64,000 nt of DNA from Alphaproteobacteria bacterium (GTDB taxonomy: Bacteria > Pseudomonadota > Alphaproteobacteria > SHVV01): NCBI GenBank assembly GCA_965261735.1, contig OZ253470.1, positions 736,001 through 800,000 on the forward strand, read 5' to 3'. Below are positions 3,581-52,575 of this stretch, piece after piece. Both the position numbers and the translations under genes were made by a program. The number at the start of each line of letters is the position of its first letter. Within the stretch, counting starts at the first letter, position 1. The notes under the pieces were generated by a model. It was given only the letters and a program-made list of their open reading frames with translations. It was not told the DNA's origin and searched no databases.

Positions 3581-5281
3581 ATGACGGAGATTGAGTCGAC
3601 AAGCGAAGCCGTGCCCGAGGGCGCGCGCGACTTTGTCCGGGCGCTGATCAGCGCCGATCCGCGCAGCGCCCGCGGGGAGGTGGTGACGCGGTTTCCGCCG
3701 GAGCCTAATGGGTATCTCCATATCGGGCACGCGAAGTCGATCTGCCTCAATTTCGGGATCGCGGACGAGTTCGGGGGGCGCTGCTATTTGCGCTTCGACG
3801 ACACCAATCCGACCAAGGAGGAGCAGGAGTACATCGAGGCGATCGAGCGTGACGTGCGCTGGCTCGGCTTCGACTGGGGCGCGCGGGCGACGTTTGCGTC
3901 GGACTATTTCGAGCAACTCTACGAATGGGCGGAGCACCTGATCCGCGCGGGCAAAGCGTATGTCGACGACCTCTCGGCGGACGAGGTGCGAGACATGCGC
4001 GGCACGCTCACCGAGCCCGGGCGCGACAGCCCGTACCGCGAGCGCTCCGTGGACGAGAACCTGGATCTCTTCCGGCGCATGCGTGCGGGCGAGTTCGCGG
4101 ACGGCGGGCGCACCTTGCGGGCGCGGATCGATATGGCGGCGGGCAACATCAATTTGCGCGACCCCACGCTCTACCGCATCCTGCATACGCCGCATCCGCG
4201 CACGCACGACGACTGGTGCATCTACCCGACCTACGATTTCGCGCACGGCCAGTGCGACGCCATCGAGGGCATCACCCACTCGCTGTGCACGCTCGAGTTC
4301 GAGGACCACCGCCCGCTCTATGATTGGCTGATCGAGAACCTGCCGGTGCCGAACCGGCCGCGCCAGTACGAGTTCGCGCGGCTCGTGCTGACGCACACGG
4401 TGCTTTCGAAGCGCAAGCTCACCCGGCTCGTCGCCGAGGGGCACGTTGCCGGCTGGGACGATCCGCGCCTGCCGACGCTCGCAGGGCTCGCGCGGCGCGG
4501 CGTGCCGGCGGCTGCGATCCGCGACTTCGTGGGCCGCATCGGCGTGACCCGGGCCGCGGCGGTGGTCGAGGCCGCACTACTCGAGCATTGCACGCGCGAG
4601 CTCCTGAACAAATCCGCGCCCCGGCGCATGGCGGTGCTGCGCCCGCTCAAGGTGGTCATCGAGAACTACGACGACGCGCACGAGGAGCTCGAAGCGGTCA
4701 ACAACCCCGAGGACGAGTCCGCGGGCACACGCAGCGTCCCGTTCTCGCGCGAGCTCTACATCGAGCGCGAGGACTTCATGGAGGAGCCGCGAGCCAAGTT
4801 CTTCCGCTTATCGCCGGGGCGCGAGGTGCGCCTGCGCTACGCCTACTTCATCACCTGCCGCGAGGCGGTCAAGGACGCGGCCGGCGAGGTCGTGGGTCTG
4901 CGCTGCACTTACGATCCGGCGAGCCGCGGCGGGCGCTCACCCGACGGGCGCAAGGTCAAGGCGACGCTGCACTGGGTGTCGGCGGCGCACGCGGTTCCGG
5001 CCGAGGTCCGGCTCTATGAGCCCCTGTTCGCGTGCGCCGATCCCGGCGCGGAAGGCGACCTCATCGACGACCTCAACCCGGAGTCGCTCACCGTGCTCGA
5101 TGGTTGCATGCTCGAGCCGGGGCTCGCCGGGGCGAACGCCTCGGAGACGCTCCAGTTCGAGCGCCTCGGCTATTTCCGCGCCGATCCCGATTCGACGCCG
5201 GCTCGGCCTGTCTTCAACCGCACGGTATCCTTGCGCGATAGTTGGGCCAGGGTCCAGGCCAAGGGCGACGCCAAGACTTAG
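3581..5281 (+). CDS. glnS: Glutamine--tRNA ligase
   Basis: [60 protein letters not shown]. Confidence 0.95.
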
Positions 5282-5293
5282 CGTGCGCGGCCC

Positions 5294-6090
5294 TCAGGCG
5301 GGCCGGCGCGCCGTCGTGACGATGGCCTGAAGGGGCGTGCGCAGCGGCGCATCGCCGAGCGCCTGCGTGAGCGCTTGCGCCACCGCATCGACGACCTCCT
5401 CGACCGGGACCGTCGCGCGCTCGCGGATCTCGTGGATGATGGGGCTGCCCTCGACGAAGCCGATCGCGGCGTGCCGCGCCGAGGGGCGTTCGGCCACCGT
5501 GGCGACCTCGCTGAGCTCGATCTCGTCGAAGCCCGCCTCGCCCAGCAGGGCCTCGATCGCACCCCGGTCGTGGTAGCTGAAGGGGAGGAGCAGGAACGTC
5601 GGCGGATCCTCGGAGAAGAAGCTCGTGATCGCCTCGTGGGCGATGCCGACCACCGGGTTTTCCGCGTGCGAGCGCCAGACGTTGAAGGCGAGCAGCCCGC
5701 CGGGCTTGAGCACGCGCAAGGCCTCGCGCATGCCGGCCGGCTTGTCGGGCAGGAACATCAGCCCGAACTGGCAGACGAGCGCATCGAAGCTCGAATCCTC
5801 GAAGGGCAGATCGGCAGCATCGGCCCGAGATCGCCGTTTTTCGCGCCCGCGAATTCGAGCATGGCCTCGTTGAGGTCGGTGGCCACGATCTCGACGCCGC
5901 CGGGCAGGGCAGCGCGCAGGGCACGCGTGGAAATGCCGGTGCCGCAGGACGTATCGAGGACCCGGCCGCCATCGGCGACCGCAACGCGGTTCGCGAGGTC
6001 AGCGGCGTAATACTCGAACAGCAGCGGCCCGAGATGGGCGTCGTACTTCTCGGGGATCGAGCCGACGAATTGCGCGTGCGTACTACTCAT
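5294..6090 (-). pseudogene. Class I SAM-dependent methyltransferase, frameshifting deletion near 5825
   Basis: VLDTSCGTG motif in the 5' ORF; ADAADLPFEDSSFDALVCQFGLMF..RVLKPGG continues in another frame. Confidence 0.8.
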
Positions 6091-8560
6091 GATCTGAATT
6101 CCTCCCTGCCGGTCGGGGCTGCCGCCAGTCTAACCCCATTCCGATTTGGCGCAGGATAGCCGGGTTGGCAACCGGCCCGGCCTCGGTTGCCGCGCCCCGG
6201 AAACCGCAATAAGCTTGCGCCATGGCCGATCGCGCGCCGCCATCGATCGGGCCGAGGACACCACGGGGACAGCCGTATGAAGTGCACCGGCTGCGGCTTT
6301 GATGCGCCGCCCGACTTCGCCTTCTGCCCCAAGTGCGGGGCGAAGTTGGCGAGCCTGTGCCCGGGCTGCGGCTTTGCCGCCGCGCCCGACTTCGCCTTCT
6401 GCCCGAAATGCGGCACGGGGCTCGGCACCGCGCCAGGCGCGCCTGCCGCGCCCGCACCGGCCGTCGTCGCCGAGGCGCGGCCGCCGCCCGGGCGGGCGGC
6501 GCGCGGCGCGCCGGCTGAGGAGTCCGACCGGCGCACGGTGACCGTTCTGTTCGCCGATCTGTGCGGCTTCACGGGCTTGAGCGAACGCCTCGATCCCGAG
6601 GAAATCCGCGCCCTGCAGGACGACATGTTCGCCGAGCTCACGGTCGCGGTCGAACGCTTCGATGGCTTCGTCGACAAGTTCGTCGGCGATGCGCTGCTCG
6701 CCCTGTTCGGCGCCCCCATCGCCCACGAGGACGACCCCGAGCGCGCCCTCGGCGCCGCGCTTGCCATGGGCGAGTGCATCGCCGCGGTGAGCGAGCGCTG
6801 GCAGCGCCGCCTCGGCGAACCGCTGGCGCTCCATATCGGCATCAACACGGGCCCGGTCGTTGCCGGCGGCCAGGGCGCGAGCGGCGCCAGCGCCTATTCG
6901 GTCACCGGCGATACGGTGAACACCGCCTCCAGGCTGCAAACGACGGCCGAGCCCGGAGACATCCTGGTCGGCCCGGTGACCCACCGGCTGACCCGCCACG
7001 CCTTCGCCTTCGACGCGTTCGGGGAGCTCACGCTGAAGGGTCGAGCGCGGCCGCTGGCCGCCCATCGGCTGCTCGGCGCCCTCGATACGGCGAGACCGGC
7101 GCGCGGGCTCGAGCCGCTCGGCCTCGAGGCACCGCTCGTCGGCCGCGAGGACGAGCTCGGCCAAATGATGGCCGCGTTCGAGCGCACGCTCGGTGGCCAG
7201 GCCCAGGTCGTGCGCCTGATCGGCGAGGCCGGCGCGGGCAAGTCGCGGCTGCTCACCGAGTTCCTGGCGCGGCTCGAGGCCGAGGGCCGGCTCGAGGGCG
7301 TGGCAGTGCGCCGGGTTCAGTGCTCCTCTCTCGGCGAGCAGCCTTACGGGGTGCTGGCGAGCGCCGTGCGCGACGCCTACGGCGTGGCGCCGGACGACCC
7401 CCTCGTGGTGGCCCAGCACAAGCTCATCTCGGGCCTCAAGGGCATTGGCGCCGACGAGGAAGACATCGCGCGCATCGCGCCGAGCCTGGGCTATCTGCTC
7501 GGCATCGACTCGGGCGATCTCGGCCTCGAGCACCTCGACCCCGAGCAGCTCAAGCGCCAAATCGCCCTTGCCCTGCGCACGATGGTCGAGCGCCGGCTTC
7601 AGGTCGGGCCTCTCGTGTGGGCCGTCGAGGACCTGCACTGGGCCGATGCGGCGTCAATCGAGGCCATGCGATTCCTGGTCGAGCGGGTCCCGGATCGGGC
7701 GTTCATGCTGATCGTAGTCCAGCGCCCGGACTTCGATGCGGGGGCGCTCGCGACCCAGCGCGCCACCCAGACCGCCATGCGCCTCGCGCGCCTCACCGAG
7801 GACGAGAGCGAGGCGCTGCTCAGCGCCCTGCTCGGCGTCCCGGCCGCGCGCCTGCCGCCGCACCTGCGCGAACTCATCGTCGCACGCACCGGCGGCAACC
7901 CATTCTATATCGAAGAGATCGTGCGCGGCCTCATCGAGACCGGCGCGCTGGTGCGCGATGGCGCCGGCTGGACCTGTCCCCCCGATACCCAGGCAGCCGA
8001 CATACCGCTCAACATTCAGGGTCTGCTGCTCGCCCGCCTCGACCGTATGCCGCGCGCCGCCCGCCAGCTCGCCCAGAACGCGGCCATCCTCGGCTCGACG
8101 TTCGATGCTGGTATGCTGCGCCGCATCGCCGGCGGGGGGGCGGCCGTCGATGACGGCCTCGACCTGCTGTGCGACGCCGAAATGCTCGAGGAAGTCCCGC
8201 GTGCGGCGGGCGGCGACGAGCAGCTCTTCCGATTCACGCAGACGCTGGTGCAGGAGGTGGTCTATCAGAACCTGCGGCGCAACGAGCTCCACGGCGAGGT
8301 CGGGCGGGTGCTCGAAGAGCTGTACGGCGGCAAGCCCGAGCGCCTCGAGGAGGTCGAGGCGCTGGGCCACCACTTCAGTCTGAGCGAGGATCGCCCCAAG
8401 GGCGCACGCTACATGGTCGCAGCGGGCGACTGGGCGCGCCGCATCTACGCCAACGACGACGCCATGCGCCACTACGAGCGAGCGCTGGCCACTCTCGAGG
8501 ATTGCGGCACCGGCGGCGAGGAGAGGCTCAACGTGTGCGAGCGGCTCGCCGACCTGCTAG

Positions 8561-10207
8561 GAGCGTGCGCCGTAGAAGTTTTGATGTTGGGCGATTGGCG
8601 CGCGGCCGCCGGAGAGGTGGGATTTTGGCCCGAGTGTGGATATCTGGCCCGCCCGACTCTGGGATGGAAATCCCAGACCGGAAGGCCGGAAGGGAAGAGA
8701 TTCGCGTTTCATACGCGGTCGATGGGCACTGCGCGCCCCGGATCAAGTGCGTTGGCAGGCCAGCACCTGCCTCAGCACGTGGCCACCGTCCCCATCCGCT
8801 TGATGTTCAACGCCAAGCACACGAGGTCCCACTCGCCGCGCACCTTCGCCAAGCCTCGCAGGCTGAATCGTCGGAATCCGAGCACCTCCTTGATCCACCC
8901 GTTCGGCGCCTCCGAGAGCCACTTGCGTTGCGCGTACCGGGCTTTGCCCGCGGGGCTCGCCAGTTTCTCACCCATGCGGTGCGTGGCAGGGAGCCGGGCC
9001 GGGTCGACCGCCACCTGGGACTTGCCTTCACGCCCCAGCGCTACGTGCGCGTCGATGCCGCGATCTTCCAGCTCCAACAGATCCGGCTCGTTGCAGTAGC
9101 CCGCATCGGCCAGTACCACCGCAGGCTCGACCCCAAACGTCTCGTTGATCTCGTCGAGCATCCCCACCAGCTGACCCTGGTCGCTGGCCTGTGGCCCCAC
9201 CTGAGTCGCGACGATGATCTGGTGCTCCCCATCGACCGCCATCTGCGCGTTGTAGCACTGCTGGAACCCCTCGCTGCTGGTCTTCATGATCTGGCTCTCG
9301 GGATCGGTGAAATTGCTCTGCGCCTTCGGCTCGGGCTCGCCGTAGGCCCGCTTGTAAGGCCGCCCGCCCCGGGGATTGCGGTCCTGCCCCGGCTCGCGCC
9401 CGCGCTCATCGTCGCGCCCGCGTTGCGCCGCCTCCAAACGCGCTTTGGCTGCCTGGATCGCCGCCAGGCGCTTCTCCCTGCGTTGCAACTCCTCGGGCAA
9501 CTCGTCGCCCCGGAAATCCTCGCCCCAACGCTCGTCTTCTTCGGCGTCCACCATCCCCGCCGTCGTCAGCAGCGCCTCGATCTCCGCCTGCAAGCGAGCC
9601 GCCTCTTTGCCCATCCGCTCATAGCTCATCGCCTTGCGCTTGCTCGCGTTCGCTCGCACCTTCGTCCCGTCGACCGAGAGCTTGCCGAACCGCGCCAGTC
9701 CCATCTCGCGCGCCACCTGCACCACCCCCACAAACAGCTCGCTGAACTCCGCCAGATGTCGGCGTCGGAACTCACATACCGTGCGATGTTGCGGGAAGTT
9801 GCCCGCCGCGAGCATCCTAAACGCTACATCCTCCTCCAGCTTCCTCGCCACCGCGCGCGAGGAGAATGTGCCCGTCGCGTAGGCATAGATCAGCACCTTG
9901 ACCATCATCGACGGCTCGTAGGGGGCGTTGCGTCGACCGTCCCCCTCGTAGGGCGCATAGAACGCCGTCAAGTCCAGTGCATCGACCACATCGCTGACGT
10001 GATGAGCCAGGTGCCCTGGGGAAACCCACTCCTGCAAGTCCGGCGGCAAAAGCAAGGGTTGGTCCGGCTGGTAGGCACGAAACGTGGTCGGCATCGGGAG
10101 TTCCCACACGCAACTGGCGTATCGGATCATACTTCCCCCTGCGCAAATCCACCCACAACCCGTCCGCTATCAACTTTGCCGCGCGGACCTTTCTGCGGCG
10201 CACGCTC
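8561..10207 (-). mobile_element. IS1182-family insertion sequence
   Basis: TIRs GAGCGTGCGCCGTAGAA (8561-8577) and TTCTGCGGCGCACGCTC (10191-10207); CTAG duplicated at 8557-8560 and 10208-10211. Confidence 0.93.
8772..10094 (-). CDS. IS1182-family transposase
   Basis: LLLPPDLQEW, MMVKVLIYAYATGTFSSR, VDGTKVRANASK, NFTDPESQIMK, LADAGY, GFRRFSLRGL. Confidence 0.92.
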   Translation of the reverse strand: MPTTFRAYQPDQPLLLPPDLQEWVSPGHLAHHVSDVVDALDLTAFYAPYEGDGRRNAPYEPSMMVKVLIYAYATGTFSSRAVARKLEEDVAFRMLAAGNFPQHRTVCEFRRRHLAEFSELFVGVVQVAREMGLARFGKLSVDGTKVRANASKRKAMSYERMGKEAARLQAEIEALLTTAGMVDAEEDERWGEDFRGDELPEELQRREKRLAAIQAAKARLEAAQRGRDDERGREPGQDRNPRGGRPYKRAYGEPEPKAQSNFTDPESQIMKTSSEGFQQCYNAQMAVDGEHQIIVATQVGPQASDQGQLVGMLDEINETFGVEPAVVLADAGYCNEPDLLELEDRGIDAHVALGREGKSQVAVDPARLPATHRMGEKLASPAGKARYAQRKWLSEAPNGWIKEVLGFRRFSLRGLAKVRGEWDLVCLALNIKRMGTVATC

Positions 10208-28809: not shown

Positions 28810-32438
<3,629 letters not shown>

Positions 32439-32445
32439 TCGCGCC

Positions 32446-33573
32446 TCACACGCGCATCGGCATGAGCACGAACAGCGCCGCCGAATCGCCCTGGTCCTCG
32501 ACGATCGTCGGCGAGACGGAATCGGCAAGCGAGAAGCGGGCGGTATCACCCTCCATCTGGGCCGTCATATCGAGCAGATAGCGGGAGTTGAAGCCGATTT
32601 CGAGCGGCTCGGCACCGTATTTCGCCGCCAGCTCCTCGGTCGCGCTGCCGCTGTCGGGACTGGTCGCCGAAAGCGTCAAGCGGTCGGATTCGACCTTGAG
32701 CTTCACGGCCCGCGACTTCTCGGTCGAGATGGTCGAGACCCGATCGACCGCGTCGGCGAAGGTCTCGCGGTCGACCTCCAGCATCTTGTCGTTGCCGACC
32801 GGGATAACGCGCTCATACTCGGGGAAGGTGCCGTCGATCAGCTTGGTGGTCAGCACCGTGTCCTCGATCGTGAAGCGAATCTTGGTCGCCGAGAGCGCGA
32901 TATCGATCGCCGCATCGCTGTGCTCGATGAGCTTCCTGACCTCGGCCACGGCCTTGCGCGGCACGATGATTCCCTGGGCCTCCTGCATGCCGGTCGCACC
33001 CTCGGGTAGCGGTGTGTCGACCCGGGCCAGCCGATGGCCGTCGGTGGCGACGGCGCGGAGCAGCGCGACACCGTTGTCCGAGCGCGCCTGAAGGTAGATT
33101 CCGTTGAGGTAGTAGCGCGCTTCCTCCGTGGAGACCGCGAAGCGGGTCTTGTCGATGAGCCGCCGGAGCTCGGCGGCGCCGAGCGAGAAGCGGATCGGCA
33201 GCTCATCCTCGGCGAAGACGGGAAAGTCCTCGCGCGGTAGGCACGGGAGAACGAACTCCGAGCGGCCCGCGCGCACCAGGAGCCGGCTCTCGTCGTCGCC
33301 GCGCGTGAGCACAACCTGGGCGCCGTCGGGCAGCTTGCGCACGATGTCGTACAGCGTGTGCGCCGGCGTTGTCGTCGCGCCCGGTTGGCCTATCTCCGCC
33401 GCGACCGCGGCAACCACCGCGAGGTCGAGGTCCGTCGCGAGCAGACTGACCGTGCCATCCTCGGCGGCGAGCAGGACGTGCGCCAGAATGGGAATGGTGT
33501 TGCGGCGCTCGACCACGCTTTGCACGTGCCCGAGCGAGGTCAGGAGAGTGGCGCGTTCAACGGTAATCTTCAT
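32446..33573 (-). CDS. dnaN: DNA polymerase III beta clamp
   Basis: VERRNTIPIL, ATDGHRL, GFNSRY, VLMPMRV. Confidence 0.97.
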   Translation of the reverse strand: MKITVERATLLTSLGHVQSVVERRNTIPILAHVLLAAEDGTVSLLATDLDLAVVAAVAAEIGQPGATTTPAHTLYDIVRKLPDGAQVVLTRGDDESRLLVRAGRSEFVLPCLPREDFPVFAEDELPIRFSLGAAELRRLIDKTRFAVSTEEARYYLNGIYLQARSDNGVALLRAVATDGHRLARVDTPLPEGATGMQEAQGIIVPRKAVAEVRKLIEHSDAAIDIALSATKIRFTIEDTVLTTKLIDGTFPEYERVIPVGNDKMLEVDRETFADAVDRVSTISTEKSRAVKLKVESDRLTLSATSPDSGSATEELAAKYGAEPLEIGFNSRYLLDMTAQMEGDTARFSLADSVSPTIVEDQGDSAALFVLMPMRV

Positions 33574-33813
33574 TTTGCAGCAAACACTTCGATGGGGCCG
33601 ACGGGCGGCCGTGGGCCCGCCTTTTTAGGCCCCTGAGGGGCCTATTTCCGACCGCTCCTACGGACCATGCGGACCGCTCACCGAGTATATCAGAGGACCC
33701 CAAAAAAAACACCGCGATAAGGGGCTTGTGGCGCCCGCGCAGCGCCCTCCGGGACGTTGGAGATAACGGGCCGCGACCGGCCCGGCGCGGGCGGCGCAGG
33801 GTAACGCGGTGGC

Positions 33814-35226
33814 TCAGTATTCGAGCATCCGGCGCAGCAGGTCGAGGTCCTCGGCGATCGCTCCCTCGCTCACGCGCAGCTCCTCAACCCGCCTCACCGC
33901 GTGCATCACGGTGGTATGGTCACGGCCGCCGAACTTGCGGCCGATTTCGGGCAGCGAGCGCGTCGTCAGCTGCTTGGCGAGATACATGGCGATCTGACGC
34001 GGGCGCGCCACGGCCCTCGCCCGGCGCGGGCTGTGCATGTCGGCGAACCGGATATTGTAGTGCTCGGCGACGCGCTTCTGAATGTCCTCGATAGTGATGC
34101 GGCGGTCGTTGGCACGCAGCAGGTCTTTCAGCACCTCCTGCGTCGTCTCCACCGTCGGCGCCCGGCCGACCAGGTCCGCATACGCCAGCACCCGGTTGAG
34201 CGCGCCCTCGAGCTCGCGCACGTTCGAGGTGATGCGGTGAGCGAGGAACTCGAGCACCCGCAGCGGCACCTCCTTGGCGCCCGCCTGCTCGGCCTTCGAC
34301 TGCAGGATGCCAACCCGGAGCTCGTAGTCGGTCGCGTGCAGGTCGGCGACCAGGCCCCAGCCGAGCCGGGAGCGCATCCGCTCCTCCAGCCCTTCGAGGT
34401 CGGACGGCGAGCGGTCGCCGGAGATGACGAGTTGGCGGCTTTGATCGACGAGCGCGTTGAAGGTGTGGAAGAACTCCTCCTGCGTCGATTCCTTGCCGCC
34501 GATGAACTGGACGTCGTCGATCATCAGCACGTCGACCGAGCGACATTGCTGCTTGAAGTCCATGACGTCCTTGTAGCGCAGCGCCCGAATGAACTGGTAC
34601 ATGAACTTCTCGGCCGACAGGTACACGACTTTGCGGCCGGGATCGCGCTCGCGGATGTGCCAGGCGATGGCGTGCATCAGGTGCGTCTTGCCGAGACCGA
34701 CGCCGCCATAGAGGAACAGCGGGTTGAAGGGCACCGTCGGCGAGTCGGCGACGCGCCTCGCGGCGGCGTAGGCGAGCTCGTTGGGCCGGCCGGTAACGAA
34801 GTTGGCGAAGGTGAATCGTCGGTCGAGCGGCGCGCCGATGTCGGGCCGGTGGGCGACGGCCTCGTTCGCGGTCGCCGGTACGATCGCGCGAGCTTCGGCG
34901 GCGGTCGATTCGGGACAGTCCAGGCGCGCTCCGGCGCCGACCCCATTGCCGCCAGTCCTCTGCTTCACGCTGATGTCGAACGTGGAGAGATTCCGGTTTT
35001 CGGCACGCCACAGGTCGCCGATACGCGCCGCATGGTGGGAGACGACCCAGTCCCTGAGGAAGCGGCTCGGCGCGACCAACCTAACCTGATCGCCGTCGAC
35101 GCCCTCGAGGGCGAGCGGCTTCAACCAGCTGTTGAAGGTCGCGTCGCCGAGCTCCACGCGCAGTCGTGCACGAACATTGTCCCACTGCTCGCGAACCTCC
35201 GCGCTGATCTCCCTCTCGTCGGCCAT
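33814..35226 (-). CDS. dnaA: Chromosomal replication initiator
   Basis: GGVGLGKTHL, IDDVQF, QEEFFHTFN, RPRQIAMYL, GGRDHTTV. Confidence 0.98.
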   Translation of the reverse strand: MADEREISAEVREQWDNVRARLRVELGDATFNSWLKPLALEGVDGDQVRLVAPSRFLRDWVVSHHAARIGDLWRAENRNLSTFDISVKQRTGGNGVGAGARLDCPESTAAEARAIVPATANEAVAHRPDIGAPLDRRFTFANFVTGRPNELAYAAARRVADSPTVPFNPLFLYGGVGLGKTHLMHAIAWHIRERDPGRKVVYLSAEKFMYQFIRALRYKDVMDFKQQCRSVDVLMIDDVQFIGGKESTQEEFFHTFNALVDQSRQLVISGDRSPSDLEGLEERMRSRLGWGLVADLHATDYELRVGILQSKAEQAGAKEVPLRVLEFLAHRITSNVRELEGALNRVLAYADLVGRAPTVETTQEVLKDLLRANDRRITIEDIQKRVAEHYNIRFADMHSPRRARAVARPRQIAMYLAKQLTTRSLPEIGRKFGGRDHTTVMHAVRRVEELRVSEGAIAEDLDLLRRMLEY

Positions 35227-38186: not shown

Positions 38187-39269
38187 CTAATGGATTGATT
38201 CCAACGTTTGGAACCCTCTGTTTCGTGCGGCGATGATATGATCGGGGTCGGCTTTCCAGATGAAGGGTTTTGGGTTTGCGTCATTGTATTCGCGGACAAA
38301 TCGGTTGATGGCGGCCTGAAGGTCGACGACGGATTGGAAGACGCCGTATTTGAGCCTGCGCCGCGTTAGTTTGGCGAAGAAGCCCTCGACGGCATTGAGC
38401 CACGAGCACGAGGTTGGCGTGAAGTGGAAGGTCCAGCGTGGATGGCGGGCGAGCCAGGCGCGGACCTTGTCCTTCTTGTGCGCGGCGTAGTTGTCGAGGA
38501 TGACGTGGACGGCCTTGTCCGTCGGCACCTCGCGCTCGATGCGGTTGAGGAAGCGGATGAACTCCTGATGGCGGTGGCGCTGCATGTTCTGTGCGATGAC
38601 CGTACCGTCCAGCACGTTGAGCGCGGCGAACAGCGTCGTCGTGCCATGCCGTTTGTAATCATAGGTCATCGTACCGGCGCGGCCCTTCTTCATCGGCAAG
38701 CCGGGTTGGGTGCGGTCGAGCGCCTGGGTCTGTGATTTCTCATCAACCGACAGCACCACGGCATGGGCCGGCGGATCGACATACAAGCCGACGATATCTG
38801 TGAGCTTCTCGGCGAAGGCGGGATCATTGGAGAGCTTGAAGTGCCGCCAGCGGTGCGGGCTGAGGCCATGGGCCTTCCAGATCGCTTGGACCGTCGACGC
38901 CGCGACGCCAGCAACCTTCGCCATCGCGCGCAGCGTCCAGTGGGTCGCCTCGTGCGGCGGCGCTTGCTGGGTCAGGCGGACGATCTCGGCGACGCGCTCC
39001 GGCGGGATCGGCGCTTTGCCAGGCGGACGGGACCTGTCGCGAAGCAAGCCGTTGACACCCTCGTGCATGAACCGCTCCTGCCAGCGCCAGACACAGGTCT
39101 TGGACTTGCCGGTCTCGGCCATGATCGACGAGTTCCCGAGCCCCTCGTCGCTCTTCAGGATGATCCGCGCCCGCCAGACATGTTTCTGCGAGCTCTTCGG
39201 GTCCGCGACGATAGCTTGCAATCGCTGACGGTCGCCAGACGTGACAGTAAAATGGATGCCGGTGCGCAT
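38187..39269 (-). CDS. IS630-family transposase
   Basis: [39 protein letters not shown]; its TAG stop is formed by the target site. Confidence 0.93.
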
Positions 39270-39338
39270 AGCACAGACTCGCATGACACCGCACAATACG
39301 GAATCTCAAATCGGACTCTTTCGTTCCGATCAATCCAC
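38190..39338 (-). mobile_element. IS630-family insertion sequence
   Basis: Ends ATGGATTGAT.. and ..ATCAATCCAC; TA duplicated at 38188-38189 and 39339-39340 within a C-TA-G target. Confidence 0.92.
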
Positions 39339-40153: not shown

Positions 40154-41695
40154 GTGCTGCGCAGCGCGCGTCATCTGTGGCGGCTCGCCGGTATCGCGCG
40201 CACGCTTGCACGCCACGATGCGTTCGCCGCGGTCGAGGGGCTCGACGTCGCGCCTCTGCTCGTCGGCATCGGCCGCGTCTTCGCCCGGCGCGCCGCCGGA
40301 GGGCGGCCCGGGCAGCGTCTCGTCGCCGCACTGCAGGAGCTCGGCCCTAGCTTCATCAAGTTCGGCCAAGCGCTGTCGACGCGCGCCGACTTGGTGGGCA
40401 CCGGCATGGCGGCCGACCTCGGCGAGCTGCGCGACCGCCTGCCGCCGTTCGCGACGGCAGAAGCCCGCGCCACCCTCGCGGCCGAGCTCGGCAAACCGGT
40501 GGAAGCCGCGTTCTCCGACTTCAGCGACATCCCGATCGCGGCGGCCTCGATCGCCCAGGTCCACCACGCAACGACGGGCGATGGCCGCGAAGTCGCGGTC
40601 AAGGTACTGAGGCCGGGGATCGAGGCGGCCTTTCAGCGCGACCTCGACCTGTTCCATTGGCTCGCCGAACTCGTCGAACGCACGCGGCCGGGCGCGCGGC
40701 GTCTACGCCCGGTCGCCGTCGTCGAGACCTTTCGGGCCGCGGTGGCGCTAGAGATGGACCTGCGGCTCGAGGCGGCGGCGGCCTCGGAGCTGGCGGAGAA
40801 CTTTGCCGGCGATGCGACCTTCCGCGTGCCCAAGGTGGACTGGGAGCGCACCGCGCGGCGGGTGCTCACGCTCGAGCGCATGGACGGCATCGCCATCGAC
40901 GAGCGCGAGCGGCTGATCGCTGCCGGGCGCGACCTCGATCGGGTGGTCCAGAATCTGTTTCGCGCCTTTCTCAACCAGGCCTTCCGCGACGGCTTCTTTC
41001 ACGCCGACCTGCACCCGGGTAACCTTTTCGTCGATGCCGAAGATGCGATCCTCGCCGTCGATTTCGGCATCATGGGCCGGCTCGATGGCGCCACCAGGCG
41101 CTACGTCGCCGAGCTGCTGCTCGCCTTCCTCACCGGCGACTACAAGCGCGCCGCCGAGGTCCACTTCGAGGCCGGCTATGTGCCCCCATCGCAGTCGCCC
41201 GAGCTGTTCGCGCAGGCCTGTCGCTCGATCGGCGAGCCGATCTTCGGCCGTGACGCCCACGAGATCTCGATAGGCCGGCTGCTGGCCCAGCTCTTCCGCA
41301 TTACCGAGACCTTCGCCATGGAGACGCAGCCCCAGCTCCTGCTGCTGCAAAAGACCCTGGTCGTCGTCGAGGGCGTGATCCGCGGCCTCGTGCCGGACGC
41401 CAACATGTGGCGCATCGCCGAGCCGCAGCTCGCCGCCCTCGTCCAGGACAGCCTCGGCCCCGAGGCGCGGCTGCGCGAGGGCCTCGAGGAGGCGGGCGGC
41501 ATCGCTCGGCGCTTTCCGCGCCTCATCGAGAAGGCCGAGCTCGCCGCCACCATGCTCGCCGGCGAGGGCCTGCGCCTGCATCCCGACAGCGCCCGCGCCA
41601 TCGCCGCCGAGCAGGACCGGCGCCGCCGTCCGACCCGTGTCCTCCTGTGGATCGCCGCCGGACTGCTGGTGGCTCTGCTGGCGACGCAGATTTAG
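40154..41695 (+). CDS. ubiB: Ubiquinone biosynthesis kinase-like protein
   Basis: LGPSFIKFGQ, AASIAQVH, VAVKV, FFHADLHPGN, DFGIMG. Confidence 0.95.
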   Translation: MLRSARHLWRLAGIARTLARHDAFAAVEGLDVAPLLVGIGRVFARRAAGGRPGQRLVAALQELGPSFIKFGQALSTRADLVGTGMAADLGELRDRLPPFATAEARATLAAELGKPVEAAFSDFSDIPIAAASIAQVHHATTGDGREVAVKVLRPGIEAAFQRDLDLFHWLAELVERTRPGARRLRPVAVVETFRAAVALEMDLRLEAAAASELAENFAGDATFRVPKVDWERTARRVLTLERMDGIAIDERERLIAAGRDLDRVVQNLFRAFLNQAFRDGFFHADLHPGNLFVDAEDAILAVDFGIMGRLDGATRRYVAELLLAFLTGDYKRAAEVHFEAGYVPPSQSPELFAQACRSIGEPIFGRDAHEISIGRLLAQLFRITETFAMETQPQLLLLQKTLVVVEGVIRGLVPDANMWRIAEPQLAALVQDSLGPEARLREGLEEAGGIARRFPRLIEKAELAATMLAGEGLRLHPDSARAIAAEQDRRRRPTRVLLWIAAGLLVALLATQI

Positions 41696-41781
41696 CTCAG
41701 AGCACGAACCGCGCGGCCTTCCTTTCGCCCCATTTACACGTCAGGGTTTAGAGTGGACTGGTCTGCAGGCGAGGAACCGGC

Positions 41782-42672
41782 ATGCGCAGGGTCATCGGTT
41801 GGGCATTCGCGGTCGCCCTGATCGGCGGCGGGGCGGTGCCCGGCAGCGGCCACGCTGGCGAAACCTACCCCATGTGGTGGGCGCCGGAGCTTGGGCTTGC
41901 GAGCCTCAATGAGATCGACGCCAAGCTCGCGGAGCCGTTCCCCGGGGGCAAGCGGGCGGTGTTCCACAAGTTAGGCCGCCACATGATCGGCACGGGCGAG
42001 ACCGCCTACGTCGGCGAGTGGGGGTCGCTCGATGCGCGGCCCATCGACAACTGCTCCGCTTATCTGAAATGGACCGACGAGGGGTACCGGCACGACAACA
42101 GCGACGAAGATTCCCACTGGGTATATCGAATGAAGGGCGGGTACTGTTTAGCCTTGCGCGCGCTGAAACGGGCGCGCCCCGCCAAGACGAGCCATGTGCA
42201 CGACTTCGGCTTTACGCGGCATGTGTTGGATTACTTCCCGGCGCTCATGGATGCCGCCGGCTGCAAATTCCTGAGGGCCGAGATCGTCGCCAACCGTGAG
42301 GGGGTGCCGTGGAGCCAATTCGTCCATCCCGCCTTTGGGCCACCGAAGTATTTTGCCAACCTGGTCGTTCCGGACCCCGAGCATTTCGTCCACGAAGCGT
42401 GGAGCTCGTCCGAGATGACGCAAAAGTACAATGAGTGGGCCTTTGCCATCATCGGTCGTGGCGATCTCGACGGGGACGGCCTGAACGATCTGCTGGTAAG
42501 GCGGGATTTCCTCGGATTCTTTGGGGACAAACCCAGGGGTCTGCCGACAACGGTCCTGTTCCTGCTAACGCGCGATCGCGAGGGCGCCGTGCTCCGGGTG
42601 ATCGACGCGCACGGGTATCGCGGGGACAACAGTAAGTCGTGCCTCAATGCAAAAATCCTGAGCCACTATTAG
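41782..42672 (+). CDS. Secreted hypothetical protein, copy 1 (candidate muramidase immunity protein)
   Basis: Signal peptide ending GHA|GETYP; four Cys; FG-GAP-like GDLDGDGLNDLLV; intact ORF; function inferred only. Confidence 0.8.
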   Translation: MRRVIGWAFAVALIGGGAVPGSGHAGETYPMWWAPELGLASLNEIDAKLAEPFPGGKRAVFHKLGRHMIGTGETAYVGEWGSLDARPIDNCSAYLKWTDEGYRHDNSDEDSHWVYRMKGGYCLALRALKRARPAKTSHVHDFGFTRHVLDYFPALMDAAGCKFLRAEIVANREGVPWSQFVHPAFGPPKYFANLVVPDPEHFVHEAWSSSEMTQKYNEWAFAIIGRGDLDGDGLNDLLVRRDFLGFFGDKPRGLPTTVLFLLTRDREGAVLRVIDAHGYRGDNSKSCLNAKILSHY

Positions 42673-42842
42673 CGACCGCGGCTGTGGAGGGTCTTCAGGG
42701 GTTTCTTGCAGGTCGGGTGGACGAAAAACGGCTCCTGCTTCAGCGTCTTCTCGAACATCTCCCGCACCGCCCGGTTGCGCTCCTCGCTCGGTTGTAGGCG
42801 GTGCGATTGCGCGGCCGCCACCTTCCAGTCACGGTGCTGCAC
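42669..42842 (-). pseudogene. Orphan 57-codon C-terminal fragment of a second muramidase allele
   Basis: VQHRDWKVAAAQSHRLQPSEERNRAVREMFEKTLKQEPFFVHPTCKKPLKTLHSRGR*, 49/57 identical to the reconstructed C-terminus at 45348-45250 + 43872-43798. Confidence 0.88.
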
Positions 42843-42912
42843 GGTAGTCCTTTCTTTCGCCCCAATCGCACGTCATGGTAGATATCCTGGTCCAAACAGG
42901 CGGGGAACCTTG

Positions 42913-43801
42913 GTGAGTAAAGCAGCCGGATGGGCAGCGGCTCTAGGTTTGTTTCTCGGCGGCGGGGCGGCGCTCGGTGGCGCCAGCGGCGGTGAAACCT
43001 ACCCAGTGTGGTGGGCGCCCGAGCTTGGGCTTGAAAACCTCGACGAGATCGACGCGGCGCTCGCCCGCCCGTTTCCCGAGGGCAAGCGCGCGGTGTTCCA
43101 CAAGTTCGGCCGGCACATGATCGGCGAGGGCGACACCGCCTATCCGGGCGAGTGGGGCTCGCTCGATGCGCAGCCCATCGACAACTGCCTCGCCTACCTG
43201 AAATGGACCGACGAGGGGTACCAGCCCGAAAACGAGGACGAGGATTCTTATTGGGTCTATGAAACCAGAGCCGGGTACTGCCTAGCCTTGCGTGCGCTCA
43301 AGCGGGCGCGCCCCGCCACAACGAGCTATCTGCGCGACTTCGGCTTCACGCACGAATCGTTGGATTACCTTCCGGCGCTGCTAAACGCCGCCGGCTGCAA
43401 GCATCTACCACCCGAACTCCTGGCCAATCGGAACGGGGTGCCGTGGAGCAAATTCGTTCATCCCGCCTTCGGGCCACGGAAGCACTTCGCCAATCTGGTC
43501 GTTCGAGACCTGGAGCACTTCGTGTACGAAGCCTGGAGCTCGTCTGAAATGACGGAAAAACGAGGATGCTTTTTCCATAATCGGGCGCGGCGATCTCGAT
43601 GGGAACGGCCTGGACGATCTCTTAGTGAGGCGGGATTTTCTTGGGTTTTCTTATGGCAAACTCAGGGGGCCGCCTGAAACGGTGCTGTTCCTCCTCTCGC
43701 GCGACCGAGAGGGCGCCGTGCTTCGCGTCATCGACGCGCATGGCTATCGCGGCGGCGGCGGCAGGTCGTGCCTCAACGCCGAAATCCTGAGCTACTATTA
43801 G
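42913..43801 (+). pseudogene. Secreted hypothetical protein, copy 2, frameshifted near 43560
   Basis: Paralogue of 41782-42672. After MTEK a ~5-nt deletion shifts frame; IIGRGDLDGNGLDDLLV..RSCLNAEILSYY* continues in another frame. Confidence 0.85.
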
Positions 43802-43946
43802 CGACCGCGGCCGTGGAGCGTCTTCAGGCCTTTCTTGCACGTGGGGTGGACGAAGAAGGGTTCCTGCTTTAGCAGGCTGCTGAAAAAGTCCTCGCCTTTG
43901 CAGTTGTGACATGATTCTGTGATTCCTTCGAGTGATGGAGGATGGC

Positions 43947-45068
43947 ATGCGGGGTCGAGATCAAAGCAGTGGCAATTTATTCAGCTACGTAGACTTGGAA
44001 GAGCGTGTTCCGGATGATCATCCGCTGCGTCTGATCCGTGAGATCGTGAACGACGTATTGGGGTCTCTATCTTCGGAGTTCGAGACGCTTTATTCCCACA
44101 TGGGTTGCCCATCGATCCCGCCGGAGAGGCTTCTTCGAGCGTTACTGTTGCAAGCGTTTTATTCGATCCGCTCGGAGCGTCAGCTGATGGAGCAGCTAAA
44201 CTTCAACATGCTGTTTTGCTGGTTTGTGGGGCTTGGGCTGGACGATGGCGTGTGGGACGCCAGCGCGTTCTGCCACAACCGGGACCGTCTTCTGGAGGCG
44301 GAGGTTTCGGGGCAGCTGCTTGCGGGGGTTATCCAGCACCACAAGGTAGGGGGACTATTGAGCCGGGATCATTTTTCGGTAGACGGAACATTGATCGAGG
44401 CCTGGGCGTCGATGAAGAGCTTTCGTCCCAAAGGTGAGGACGATGGCGACGGGGGATCGGGGCGCAACGCCGCGCGGGATTTTCATGGCGAGAAACGCTC
44501 GAACGCGACCCATGCAAGCACCACTGATCCGGACGCCCGGCTTTATCGCAAGGGTAATGGCCGGGAAAGCAAGCTGTGTTACATGGGCCATGCGCTGACG
44601 GAGAACCGCCATGGTCTGGCAGTCGGCGGCGGCGTGACCATTGCGTCGGGCACGGCGGAACGCGAAGCCGCCCTTTATCTGATCGACAGGCATCGCCCGG
44701 TGGAGAGTAGAGGCGGGCGGCGTCGGATCACGGTGGGCGGGGACAAGGGTTTTGACGTCGCGGATTTTGTCGAGGAACTGCGGCACCGCAAGGTGACCCC
44801 CCATATCGCCGTCCAGGACCACGTCACCAAGACCGGCAAGCGGCGCAAGACCAAGATAGACGGGCGCACGACGCGCCATCCCGGTTACGGCGTCAGCCAA
44901 CGTTGCCGCAAGCGCATCGAGGAGGTCTTCGGCTGGGTCAAGACGAGCGCGGGATTGAGCAAGACCAAATTCCGGGGCCGCCACCGGGTCGACGCTTCGT
45001 TCACCCTGGCCTTGGCCGCCTACAACCTCGTCCGACTACCCAGACTGCTGGCGGAGGCGCCAACATGA
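43947..45068 (+). CDS. IS5-family transposase
   Basis: LFSYVDLEERVPDDHPLR, SVDGTLIEAWAS, TTDPDARL, GDKGFD, RKRIEEVFGW. Confidence 0.93.
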   Translation: MRGRDQSSGNLFSYVDLEERVPDDHPLRLIREIVNDVLGSLSSEFETLYSHMGCPSIPPERLLRALLLQAFYSIRSERQLMEQLNFNMLFCWFVGLGLDDGVWDASAFCHNRDRLLEAEVSGQLLAGVIQHHKVGGLLSRDHFSVDGTLIEAWASMKSFRPKGEDDGDGGSGRNAARDFHGEKRSNATHASTTDPDARLYRKGNGRESKLCYMGHALTENRHGLAVGGGVTIASGTAEREAALYLIDRHRPVESRGGRRRITVGGDKGFDVADFVEELRHRKVTPHIAVQDHVTKTGKRRKTKIDGRTTRHPGYGVSQRCRKRIEEVFGWVKTSAGLSKTKFRGRHRVDASFTLALAAYNLVRLPRLLAEAPT

Positions 45069-45226
45069 CGGGCGATGCCGGCACGCCGCTGACCGCAAAG
45101 TGGCAGATCATCGAACTGGACGAAGCCCAGGGCATCGGATCGGTCGAGATTGAAGACGGTTTCACCCTAAGACACGAAATCTCATTTCATTTCGGCGATG
45201 AATCCGAGTTCAAGGCCCGGCAATGA
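45065..45226 (+). CDS. Small passenger ORF inside IS5 (53 aa, possibly internally deleted)
   Basis: ATGA overlap with the transposase stop; MTGDAGTPLTAKWQIIELDEAQGIGSVEIEDGFTLRHEISFHFGDESEFKARQ ends just before the right TIR. Confidence 0.5.
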   Translation: MTGDAGTPLTAKWQIIELDEAQGIGSVEIEDGFTLRHEISFHFGDESEFKARQ

Positions 45227-46278
45227 TGACTTTTTCAGCAGCCTGTTAGTGCCTTCTCGAACATCTCTTGCACCGCCCGGTTGCGCTCCTCGTTCGGCTG
45301 TAGGCGGTGCGATTCCGCCGCCGCCACCTTCCAGTTGCGCCACTGCACAGCGGGGGTAAATTTCTCGAACACTTTGATAAGGTTCGGTACGCCTAAGTTG
45401 TATCCCATGTCATAGAGGCCGAGCTGGGCCGAACGGGGATAGGTCGCCATCTTGGGGAAACGCTCGGAGTCCCGCAACTCGTTGCGGACGTTTTCGATAT
45501 CCCTCATCGCTAGTGTCCAAATCTCGGCGTCCGACAGGTCGAGGCGCGTCAAATCCTTGAACTTGGTGTGGTCGCTTCCCTTGAGGTCCTGACGTTGGAA
45601 CACGGCACGCCAGGCCTGCCGCTTCTCGTATGCGTCCGCGTACACCAGCGGCTTCATGTCGCCCATCGGGATGCGCCGATGGAAGGGCAGCGCCACGACA
45701 TCGGATTCGTCGGCAATCTGGGTGACCCATGCCGACGGTGACCTTGCCCTCGGTATCGAGGTACATGTGCGACACCCACCCCTCATGTTTGTGCAGGTGC
45801 TGGTACACCGTGTCCTCCTCGACCGTCCAGGTAAGGGGCCGATTCATCTGCTTGCTGACCCGCTACAGTTTCGCATCGCGATAAACGCAGCCCGTGCCGC
45901 GCTGGACCAGCACGCCCTTCTTGGTCCCGATGGCGTTCCAGTCGTAAGCCCAGCCCGCTTCCTCTTTCATTTGACGTCCCGCCTTTCTTTCAGCGATCGC
46001 GACACGGGCGGGGAAATTCGCCCCTGCCCGGGGTCGCAGTGAGGTCGAAGATTTGTTGCTCGAGTTTTCTCAGCTCGGTATCGAACATGAGCATTGCGCT
46101 TCCTCTACGATGTGTATCGTTATGTATCGTAACAGCTCTCTTCGTATCATGTCAAAGCATTGGGACGTTCATGCAGCGATACTTCGCGTTCGCGGGATTT
46201 GGCCGACGGCTTGCGCTGCGGCCGCGCGCCAGCTATGTTATTTACAGCCACGCAACGTAGTTTCCGGGTAAATACGCG

Positions 46279-51470: not shown

Positions 51471-52575
51471 CTTGCCTATCCGGTTTACACCCACACCCAC
51501 TAGGGCTAGAATGGGCGCAACCCGGATATAGGGGAGCGCGCCATGGATGTTCTCGACCGCGCCGATCTCCCATTCCCGCATTCGCTACCCGAGTTCCAGC
51601 GACTTTTCCCCGATGATGCGGCCTGCGCCACCTACCTGGAGAAAGCCCGCTGGGGAGACGGCTTTGCCTGCCCGCACTGCGGCACGGCGGGAGAGCCGTT
51701 CCACTTTGAAAACCGCCCTGGCGTCCTGCGCTACCGCAAGTGCCGCCAGAACACCGGGCTGACGGTGGGAACAGTGATGGAGCGTAGCCACACTCCGCTG
51801 AACGTCTGGTTCTGGGCCGCTTATCTGGTCGCCAGTCAGACGCCCGGCATGTCCGCCGTGCAGTTTCAGCGGCAACTTGGTCTTTCGCGCTACGAGACGG
51901 CCTTTCAAATTCTCCACAAGCTCCGCTCGGGCATGGTGCGGCCCAACCAAGACAGGATCGGTGGACAGCCCAAGAACCATGTTGAGGTGGACGAAACCTG
52001 GGTTGGCGGGCGAACGCGTGGGGAAGGCCGTGGTGTTCACCACAAGGTTCCCGTCTCCTGTGCCATCGAGGTGCGTCATCGAAAGCCGGGCACCAAGCTC
52101 GACAACCGGAAAGACGGACGCTATGCCGGACGCGTTCGGCTCGCCGTCGTGCTCGACCGTAGCGCCGAGTCGCTCTGTGGGTTCGTCGAGAGCACCGTCG
52201 CGCCGCGATCGCTGATCGTTACTGACGATTGGAGCGGCTATGCTGGCCTCGGTAAGCGCGGCTATGAGCACTTCGCTGTTGCCGAGTGTGGTGATCCAGA
52301 GGTTGCCGAGCAATACCTGCCGATCATCCATCTGGTTTTCGCCAACCTGAAGACGTGGCTGATCGGTATCCACCACGGCGTTAGCCACCAGCACCTACAA
52401 GCCTACCTCAACGAGTTCACCTTCCGCTTCAACAGGCGGTTCTACCCGTTCAACGCCTTCCGCTCATTGCTCGGCATCGCGGGCGACACCTCTGCTCCAA
52501 CCTATGCCGAGCTTTACTCGGGAGAGTGGTGGCACCCTACATGTAGCGGTCATGGGCGTTAACCGGATAGGCAAG
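51471..52575 (+). mobile_element. IS1595-family insertion sequence (ISSod11-like ends)
   Basis: TIRs CTTGCCTATCCGGTTTACACCCA (51471-51493) and TGGGCGTTAACCGGATAGGCAAG (52553-52575), 21/23 match; no target duplication. Confidence 0.9.
51543..52562 (+). CDS. IS1595-family transposase
   Basis: CPHC ribbon, VEVDETWVGG, TDDWSGY, YLNEFTFRFNRR. Confidence 0.92.
   Translation: MDVLDRADLPFPHSLPEFQRLFPDDAACATYLEKARWGDGFACPHCGTAGEPFHFENRPGVLRYRKCRQNTGLTVGTVMERSHTPLNVWFWAAYLVASQTPGMSAVQFQRQLGLSRYETAFQILHKLRSGMVRPNQDRIGGQPKNHVEVDETWVGGRTRGEGRGVHHKVPVSCAIEVRHRKPGTKLDNRKDGRYAGRVRLAVVLDRSAESLCGFVESTVAPRSLIVTDDWSGYAGLGKRGYEHFAVAECGDPEVAEQYLPIIHLVFANLKTWLIGIHHGVSHQHLQAYLNEFTFRFNRRFYPFNAFRSLLGIAGDTSAPTYAELYSGEWWHPTCSGHGR

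Follow-up and report, generated by a model that had tools for sequence, protein, structure and literature searches.

The DNA analysed here is a stretch of 64,000 nucleotides, called the window below, from an alphaproteobacterium (GTDB lineage SHVV01; assembly GCA_965261735.1, contig OZ253470.1, positions 736,001 to 800,000 of the forward strand). The subject is an insert between the genes ubiB and coaBC, in which the remains of a lysozyme gene face two genes coding for proteins with a signal-like N-terminus, termed SP. The insert is flanked by ubiE and ubiB on the left and by coaBC on the right; ubiB ends at position 41695, coaBC starts at 46279, and the gap between them is 4583 bp. From left to right it contains SP-A, the orphan 3' tip of a lysozyme gene, SP-B, the 3' tip of the main lysozyme gene, an insertion sequence (IS) of the IS5 family, the body of the lysozyme gene and a degraded 5' region. 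The features are listed below; aa stands for amino acids, ORF for open reading frame and HMM for hidden Markov model.

41717 to 41781, plus strand: left end of repeat unit 1, comprising the upstream region and the GAGGA ribosome-binding site of SP-A, repeated at 42849-42912.
41782 to 42672, plus strand: SP-A, an intact ORF of 296 aa with a signal-like N-terminus and an FG-GAP-like GDLDGDGLNDLLV loop, a candidate orphan immunity gene.
42669 to 42848, minus strand: orphan lysozyme 3' fragment, the last approx. 58 codons and the TAA, the stop overlapping that of SP-A.
42913 to 43801, plus strand: SP-B, a paralogue of SP-A and a pseudogene, with a GTG start and two tblastn pieces in different frames.
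43798 to 43872, minus strand: main lysozyme 3' end, 24 codons (LKQEPFFVHPTCKKGLKTLHGRGR) and the TAA, severed from the body by IS5; positions 279-304 of the family HMM.
43873 to 45245, plus strand: IS5-family element of 1373 bp with inverted repeat I1 and the Pfam domains DDE_Tnp_1 and DUF772.
45250 to 45970, minus strand: body of the lysozyme pseudogene, ATG at 45970-45968, delineated by the intact relative P0191, comparison with P0183 and P0187, HMM mapping, and PDB and Pfam matches.
45971 to 46155, minus strand: degraded 5' region with a short ORF at 46094-45993 (MLMFDTELRKLEQQ...), which resembles the N-terminus of the approx. 300-aa family but lies in another frame.

The GC content of the gap is 0.54-0.68 against 0.68-0.75 in the flanks, and at third codon positions it is 0.72-0.80 in the genes of the insert against 0.87-0.93 in ubiB and coaBC. 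Since both values are below those of the surrounding genes, the composition fits a horizontal acquisition of the 4.58-kb insert. A preliminary description of the window, made from its letters alone, had reported an insert of approx. 4.5 kb at this place and had seen no holin, phage or secretion genes nearby. Both statements agree with our results: besides the lower GC of the 4583-bp gap, no Pfam domain related to phages, holins or secretion was detected in the 47 ORFs of the window with at least 100 aa, shorter ORFs being left out of the scan. No further copy of the lysozyme or of the SP family was found elsewhere in the 64-kb window, and additional paralogues (P0002, P0006, P0008, P0011 and P0015) are located on the same 5.0-Mb contigs.

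The left part of the insert is a tandem repeat of 1.13 kb, approx. 80% identical, in which SP-A with the orphan tip and SP-B with the main tip form the two units; the units begin at 41717 and 42849, and the direct repeat D7 at these boundaries (41717-41747 and 42849-42879) is 84% identical. In both units the stop codon of the SP gene and that of the lysozyme share the same TTAG, exactly at 42669-42672 and at 43798-43801, as noted earlier for this junction and its recurrence with a diverged paralogue. With the two genes pointing towards each other, any duplication that has one of its breakpoints within the lysozyme gene is bound to carry the 3' tip of that gene along with the SP gene. The orphan cassette proposed earlier is thus real: residues 106-163 of P0013 align to 42845-42672 with 84% identity (tblastn), and the fragment corresponds to positions 251-305 of the family HMM (E 1.7e-21).

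The presence of an IS5 element inside the lysozyme gene was likewise borne out by the inverted repeats, by the duplicated target TTAG at 43869-72 and 45246-49 and by the transposase at 43932-45068, which scored 261 bits against NF033581 (cut-off 140). In P0014, from another assembly of the lineage, the lysozyme ORF is interrupted at approximately the same codon by this IS or one like it and enters it from the other end; the TTAG site may thus have been hit separately or in inverted orientation.

The reading frame of the lysozyme is interrupted by three lesions. An in-frame TAG is found at 45865-45863, where P0018, P0190 and P0191 have a Gln; a +1 frameshift is located in CACCCAG at 45724-45718, a point across which P0015, P0018 and P0191 read GMGHQIAEEAD; and IS5 is inserted 24 codons ahead of the stop, in a tail which is seen without interruption in P0013 and P0183. 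P0191 is an intact lysozyme of 264 aa, from MKEE to HSRGR, and the only lysozyme ORF of the lineage seen without truncation. Among the other assemblies of the lineage, P0183 and P0187 carry the same frameshift without the IS, and P0190 has a different premature stop. Since other assemblies share the frameshift or differ in their lesions while P0191 is intact, the frameshift can be taken as a real, shared mutation and the decay as ongoing. The lysozyme of the window is a pseudogene with three lesions.

The catalytic motif HEGWVSHMYLDTEGKVT is preserved, with the catalytic Glu codon at 45784-45782, so the E-x8-D-x5-T signature of T4 lysozyme had been read correctly. The minus-strand gene was also correctly recognised; its length of approx. 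300 aa, which comes from prolonging the gene to 46094, was not, since the intact relative has 264 aa and starts with the MKEE at 45970. An extension up to 46094 would be consistent in position with the approx. 300-aa family, but the short ORF at 46094-45993 matches positions 1-18 of the family HMM with an E of 1.6, which is not significant, and lies in a different frame. Further upstream a promoter-like site (46155-46126) fits at 10 of 12 positions, one such site being found where 0.9 were expected by chance.

In order to place the enzyme, a family profile of 30 sequences (A7) was compared with the PDB, where it matched T4 lysozyme with an E of 6e-12 in two collinear stretches covering both lobes. 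In these 30 sequences the positions of the catalytic E, D and T either do not vary or are conserved to at least 90%, and they align to E11, D20 and T26 of T4 lysozyme. The read-through sequence of the window itself matched the lysozyme domain of T4 gp5 in the PDB (E 1e-4, two collinear stretches), and the endolysin family phrog_7 of PHROGs was matched with an E of 2e-5. Against the Pfam family Phage_lysozyme (PF00959) the window read-through reached 19.1 bits and P0191 15.3 bits, both below the cut-off of 22.3 bits, and the lysozyme of locus L006 reached 31.5 bits. A profile search of 1.84 billion representative proteins gave 535 relatives at E of 0.001 or below; 23 of the 40 that were scanned carry PF00959, one of them also with a Pesticin domain and one (P0039) with an eCIS_core N-terminus. 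The kinship to GH24 expected earlier is supported by these matches. As to a pesticin-like enzyme, the Pesticin domain PF16754 matched neither the window lysozyme nor P0191 and was found in two relatives (P0019, E 3e-7; the L008 lysozyme, E 1e-6). At the profile level the window lysozyme is a relative of T4 lysozyme and of GH24, and its muramidase activity is putative.

The gene of the window shares with a subclass of approx. 300 aa a helical N-terminus, a GW.NDP...VLVE.GTGC module and a C-terminal EPFF...C.K tail, and has no signal peptide or other export signal. No match to the N-terminal module was obtained in Pfam, NCBIfam or the Atlas. In the A7 alignment the Cys of the GTGC module and that of the C-terminal tail are both present in 16 sequences and both absent in four, and never does one occur alone. 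A pair that co-occurs in this way suggests that a disulfide holds the two ends of the enzyme together and, with it, that the enzyme works outside the cytoplasm. A TonB box was also considered for the conserved VLV(E/Q) strand, a reading which found no support; by eye, no pentapeptide resembling a TonB box was recognised.

The SP proteins are the second constituent of the locus. SP-A matches a 98% identical cluster of 296-aa proteins (P0001), and further members of 296 aa occur in other assemblies. SP-B has lost five nucleotides near 43558/43559, as seen in the DNA alignment; its intact orthologue is P0003, and the truncated ORF of the window is P0007. The SP gene that ends at 43801, to which the preliminary description had given a protein product, is thus itself broken; the features ascribed to it, a signal-like N-terminus, the GDLDGDGLNDLLV motif and conserved Cys residues, are all seen in the 296-aa protein. 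Its N-terminus is hydrophobic and signal-like as judged by eye, and C91 and C122 are invariant in 20 SP sequences. Between SP-A and SP-B the ratio of nonsynonymous to synonymous substitution rates (dN/dS) was 0.29 in a stretch of 214 codons and 0.17 in one of 79 codons, at a dS of 0.6-0.8; the two diverged under purifying selection.

The family is rare and without annotated relatives. Twelve SP clusters were present among 5.8 billion proteins, all of them from this lineage. In Pfam only FG-GAP was matched, below threshold and at the GDLDGDG loop (16 bits against 22.1), and three SP relatives exceed the FG-GAP cut-off for that single repeat. No match was found in NCBIfam, PHROGs gave one non-significant match (E 0.51), the profile search of the PDB gave no relative, and in the Atlas SP-A fell among unnamed 'hypothetical protein' clusters and nothing else. 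An AlphaFold model of SP-A made with 11 close sequences was unusable, with a predicted local distance difference test score (pLDDT) of 41.8; with the 20 sequences of alignment A6 the pLDDT was 82.6 and the predicted template modelling score 0.80. In this model an N-terminal alpha/beta part is followed by a helical middle and by a C-terminal beta-sheet which bears the DxDxDG loop. Foldseek comparison of the model found no match at E of 0.001 or below either in the PDB (best probability 0.25 among 49 listed matches) or in BFVD. Accordingly, the family and structure search suggested earlier for the 296-aa protein yielded neither a family above threshold in Pfam or NCBIfam nor a neighbour in the PDB or in BFVD, and a new fold is a possibility, as far as the model can be compared with these two collections. 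By Pfam, NCBIfam, PDB profile and Foldseek, SP showed no similarity to the known lysozyme inhibitors Ivy, MliC/PliC, PliI, PliG and LprI or to X-Tfi. The literature searched, supplements aside, contained no description of the SP family or of the approx. 300-aa lysozyme class. Neither of the two families has an annotation in Pfam or NCBIfam. The kind of system is already known.

The association of the two families was followed in other genomes, one genome per species, by a locus scan with the lysozyme alignment A5, which gave 80 loci; the SP profile was run on all six-frame ORFs of these. In all seven loci of the full-length class (L001-L007) the immediately downstream convergent ORF was an SP match, with gaps of 18-123 nt. 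These loci come from Kiloniellales, from other proteobacterial metagenome-assembled genomes (MAGs) and from contigs assigned by binning to Nitrospira and Acidimicrobiia. The two families also occur together in three further loci: L016 with a convergent SP-family gene at gap 0, L008 with an SP match on the same strand (E 3e-18, with an HMM built without L008), and L084 on a Pseudoalteromonas megaplasmid with a same-strand pair (E 3e-22) that is preceded by the genes of an Rhs toxin and of SMI1 immunity. The proposed recurrence of convergent pairs in other genomes was therefore found in every full-length relative fetched, and these results support the SP protein as a conserved partner of the lysozyme.

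Several observations support that SP behaves like an immunity gene. L004 has three SP genes in a row, and in L001 (8925-10520), L003 (8960-10570), L004 (3698-5341) and L005 (785-3178) two or three SP domains follow one another in a single polypeptide, in effect a fused immunity array. The two SP copies of the window, diverged under purifying selection, belong here as well. In the lineage of the window 12 SP clusters stand against five lysozyme clusters, nearly all of the latter truncated, and intact 296-aa SP proteins persist while the lesions of the lysozyme differ among the assemblies.

The surroundings of the pairs vary: L001-L003 lie by a gene for a DinG-like helicase and L007 by an M1 peptidase gene. 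In other branches of the lysozyme clade (L029, L044, L056, L061, L073 and L078) the convergent position is held by unrelated secreted proteins or lipoproteins. In one of them, L056 of Pseudoalteromonas luteoviolacea (5435-10087), a C39-peptidase ABC exporter and HlyD lie right beside the lysozyme and its convergent secreted partner; taken together, the two resemble a bacteriocin export system. In Acidobacteriaceae (L027, L035, L042, L047 and approx. 28 more) a short lysozyme of the clade lies directly upstream of an M16 peptidase gene pair, a conserved and apparently different context.

Relatives also occur on plasmids. P0191 matched 77 plasmid records by tblastn, mostly enterobacterial plasmids of 4-8.6 kb, and the corresponding search with SP found the Pseudoalteromonas record itself only. 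Two of these plasmids were inspected, NZ_CP019956.1 (L082, 3156-4610) and NZ_AP026879.1 (L083, 1149-2557). In each, the gene of a lysozyme of 253-260 aa, Gly-rich at its N-terminus, converges on that of a secreted protein of approx. 200 aa; both genes are annotated as hypothetical. These pairs have the appearance of a colicin-like muramidase bacteriocin, so far undescribed, and its immunity gene. Their identity with colicin Z was considered and rejected, since that colicin has 237 aa and an immunity protein with four transmembrane segments, as far as the source describes it.

On these grounds the locus is probably a muramidase toxin with a periplasmic immunity protein of the pesticin/Pim type, which has decayed here to an orphan immunity gene. 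The reading is built on the observed anatomy of the insert, the GH24 membership at the profile level, the conserved pairing and the pattern of decay. It is further favoured by relatives in contexts of antagonism (L016, L044, L084, the eCIS_core fusion P0039 and the Phage_Mu_F fusions L020 and L024), by the unrelated secreted proteins or lipoproteins that hold the convergent position in other branches, by the convergent genes of pesticin and its immunity protein, and by the co-occurring Cys pair. The minus-strand gene would once have encoded a muramidase of approx. 264 aa without a signal peptide, composed of a divergent GH24 domain, an N-terminal hairpin module (GW..VLVQRGTGC) and the EPFF...C.K tail. 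We infer that this enzyme would kill a neighbouring cell by cutting its peptidoglycan from the periplasmic side, after delivery by a bacteriocin-like route or by a type VI secretion system (T6SS), and that the SP protein, exported by the Sec pathway, would bind and block it in the periplasm of the producer. Since the SP gene lies on the opposite strand, it should have its own promoter, and the protection should be independent of the expression of the toxin. The second SP gene and the orphan 3' tip would then have arisen by a tandem duplication of which one breakpoint fell within the lysozyme gene; later the toxin would have been inactivated by the nonsense codon, the frameshift and IS5, and the adjacent SP-B by the 5-nt deletion. 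SP-A would survive alone, as an orphan immunity gene against relatives which still make the toxin. Of the lysozyme/immunity pair proposed earlier, the conserved partnership and the immunity-like behaviour thus stand, but a working pair is not present in the window.

Some findings weigh against this reading. The covariation of the Cys residues may reflect just one or two evolutionary events. No TonB box (searched by eye) or Gly-rich translocation region was seen in this lysozyme class, and no secretion, lysis or receptor-related genes were detected in the 64-kb window or in L001-L007 (62 ORFs), one of which, L006, adjoins HK97-type head genes. A secreted partner is lacking in most of the 80 lysozyme relatives; 32 of the 80 loci have, after the lysozyme, a same-strand ORF of 504-557 aa, which was an M16 peptidase in all four that were scanned, and this context without a secreted partner means that the clade is not always a toxin. 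Moreover, the count of pairs is one-directional, because the search for loci set out from the lysozyme; a scan that started from SP (alignment A1) gave 195 pattern matches and no relatives, which says nothing about the distribution of SP.

For the probable toxin/immunity pair, two sub-hypotheses on delivery were compared. A bacteriocin-like route is suggested by the layout, by the cassettes that stand alone and by the sister group on plasmids, a T6SS by L016 together with the Rhs islands. According to the first, the pair is a released, colicin-like bacteriocin whose N-terminal module serves receptor binding and translocation as in pesticin; we hold this only tentatively. The convergent layout is identical to that of the pesticin gene pst and its immunity gene, and PMC6668396 states, in the portion available, that immunity genes of opposite polarity are typical of the colicins acting at the plasma membrane and of colicin M. 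In addition, the pair occurs as a stand-alone two-gene cassette in unrelated neighbourhoods, the sister branch with its Gly-rich N-terminus sits on small plasmids of the ColE1 type, and the L056 pair abuts an exporter. A lysozyme-like bacteriocin with the candidate gene pair GDI0415/0416 is reported for another alphaproteobacterium, G. diazotrophicus, in an excerpt of PMC2765452, and can be set beside this family by description only. On the other side, neither a TonB box nor a Gly-rich region is recognisable in this class and a lysis or release gene is absent; the similarity to pesticin by hhalign is low (E 8.8e-4, probability 23%); and engineered disulfides blocked the uptake of pesticin (PMC3390615, in the part consulted), whereas this family conserves a Cys pair.

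The second sub-hypothesis, which we regard as doubtful, makes the same pair a cargo effector, similar to Tge/Tgi, of a T6SS encoded elsewhere in the genome. It is favoured by L016, where tssK immediately precedes the lysozyme and its convergent SP gene and tssB and tssC are neighbours, by L044, which lies beside DcrB/Eag and PAAR-Rhs genes, by the position of L084 after an Rhs toxin and by an enzyme that lacks a signal peptide; effectors of T6SS with a pesticin domain are in print, according to PMC9620997 and PMC9927483. However, T6SS core genes were found in just one (L016) of the 22 loci scanned with Pfam and in none of the seven full-length loci or the window, L016 belongs to a shorter class without the N-terminal module, and effector-immunity pairs are bicistronic in the account given by an extract of PMC9796082, not convergent.

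A housekeeping role, in which an autolysin remodels the wall of its own cell under a periplasmic regulator or inhibitor and without antagonism, is improbable in our judgement. It has parallels, since there are periplasmic inhibitors of peptidoglycan hydrolases, which can act in self-protection; X-Tfi of Xanthomonas protects against cis-intoxication (PMC10933484, as far as excerpted), and the Acidobacteriaceae branch next to the M16 peptidases looks chromosomal and conserved. Against it stand the patchy and rare distribution (12 SP and five lysozyme clusters in 5.8 billion proteins), the low-GC insert with a different neighbourhood in each genome and an enzyme without an export signal; besides, the enzyme decays repeatedly while the partner is kept, and some relatives lie in Rhs or T6SS islands.

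That the locus is a lysis remnant of a prophage or gene-transfer agent, with the lysozyme as endolysin and SP as an accessory lysis or regulatory protein, is very improbable: although GH24 is a classic endolysin fold with a phrog_7 match, L006 follows genes of an HK97 protease, capsid and connector, and L020 and L024 are fusions with Phage_Mu_F (MuF), no Pfam holin, spanin or lysis domain or structural gene was found in the window or in six of the seven loci (ORFs below approx. 90-100 aa, the size of most holins, being unscanned), tblastn against 50,697 phage records gave one weak partial match of P0191 and none of SP-A, the SP model has no BFVD neighbour, and SP arrays and tandem fusions are foreign to lysis cassettes. 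As to a prophage lysis cassette in relatives, against which the preliminary description had set its reading, L006 alone among the seven loci lies near head genes.

A more far-reaching form of the toxin/immunity reading can be offered as a speculative proposal, and as a whole it is rather unlikely to hold in every part. In it, SP would represent a new family of immunity proteins whose fold is missing from the PDB, and together with lysozymes of approx. 264-310 aa it would form an unrecognised, phylogenetically wide class of muramidase bacteriocins. The N-terminal hairpin module would be clasped by a disulfide to the C-terminal tail, the convergent orientation would be fixed with adjacent or overlapping 3' ends, and antisense transcription reading through from the immunity gene may throttle the expression of the toxin. 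Delivery would be neither by the classical TonB-box colicin pathway nor obligately by a T6SS.

If the SP proteins are inhibitors, they constitute a new and easily testable family of lysozyme inhibitors without a known structural relative. A set of natural toxin/immunity pairs would then also be defined, in Kiloniellales and other MAGs, in Azoarcus, in Pseudoalteromonas and in an acidobacterial T6SS cluster, and the sister group on small enterobacterial plasmids carries hypothetical-protein annotation only. The convergent layout of the pesticin style would be a recurrent design for muramidase toxins and could be used to mine immunity genes. For the annotation of this genome, the locus provides one intact orphan immunity-like gene, two pseudogenes and an IS element.

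As regards the wider surroundings, gyrB, dnaN and dnaA are grouped on the minus strand at 28810-35226 and the insert is approx. 6.5 kb from dnaA; with these three genes together, the window represents the region of the chromosomal replication origin. An IS630-type transposase gene with DDE_3 and helix-turn-helix domains (38187-39296, minus strand) lies between fpg and ubiE and overlaps the start of the longest ubiE ORF at 39241. Another transposase gene, of the IS1595 family (51543-52562, plus strand), belongs to the third IS within 64 kb of an otherwise core chromosome.

The locus can be compared with four kinds of known systems. With X-Tfe (XAC2609) and X-Tfi (XAC2610) of the Xanthomonas type IV secretion system it has in common a cytoplasmic lysozyme-like effector and a periplasmic inhibitor (PMC10933484, from the portion cited above). 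The same portion describes a Ca-binding loop of X-Tfi which is closely followed by the inhibitory loop; in SP an FG-GAP-like DxDxDG loop is followed by a variable loop, a likeness at the motif level only and thus a lead, not a result. The X-Tfi structure 4QTQ was not among the 49 listed Foldseek matches of SP, none of which reached E 0.001. X-Tfe, moreover, is a GH19 enzyme with an XVIPCD secretion signal (PMC10933484, in the same portion), whereas the window lysozyme belongs to GH24 and no such signal was recognised.

Tge/Tgi, Tse3/Tsi3 and the pesticin-domain VgrG effectors of T6SS resemble the locus in joining a peptidoglycan glycosidase without a signal peptide to a secreted cognate inhibitor, and orphan immunity arrays have been described for T6SS effector loci (PMC9796082, in the extract already mentioned). 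Unlike those bicistronic pairs the genes studied here are convergent, and T6SS genes are absent near the window copy and near all seven full-length relatives, L016 alone being situated in a T6SS cluster.

The likeness to the colicin operons is in the arrangement: the immunity gene is on the opposite strand, in colicin Z downstream of the activity gene, and the toxin acts outside the cytoplasm (PMC6668396, again from the portion available). The toxin and immunity families, on the other hand, differ from those of the pore-formers and of colicins M and Z, and no SOS box or lysis gene was noticed at the locus.

The closest parallel in design is pesticin, a muramidase similar to T4 lysozyme with N-terminal translocation and receptor domains, whose immunity protein Pim is periplasmic (PMC3390615, in the part consulted). 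Both toxins have a C-terminal T4-lysozyme-like domain, an additional N-terminal module and no signal peptide, and both genes meet the immunity gene with adjacent 3' ends. The families themselves are remote: the A7 profile is closer to T4 lysozyme itself than to pesticin, and SP, with 296 aa against the 131 aa of Pim, shows no similarity to it (A6 profile, hhalign probability 0.2%). Unlike pesticin, the lysozyme has no recognised FyuA-type receptor domain or TonB box, and the window locus is chromosomal, duplicated and decayed. The convergent layout of pesticin and Pim is nevertheless found in the window, and the signal-like N-terminus of SP, seen by eye, is consistent with a periplasmic location. 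On plasmid pPCP1 (NC_003132.1) the pesticin immunity gene (4385-4780, plus strand) and pst (4815-5888, minus strand) converge across a gap of 34 nt. The tail-to-tail layout, which the preliminary description had called atypical, is therefore by this example and by the statement of PMC6668396 the classical layout for toxins that act outside the cytoplasm.

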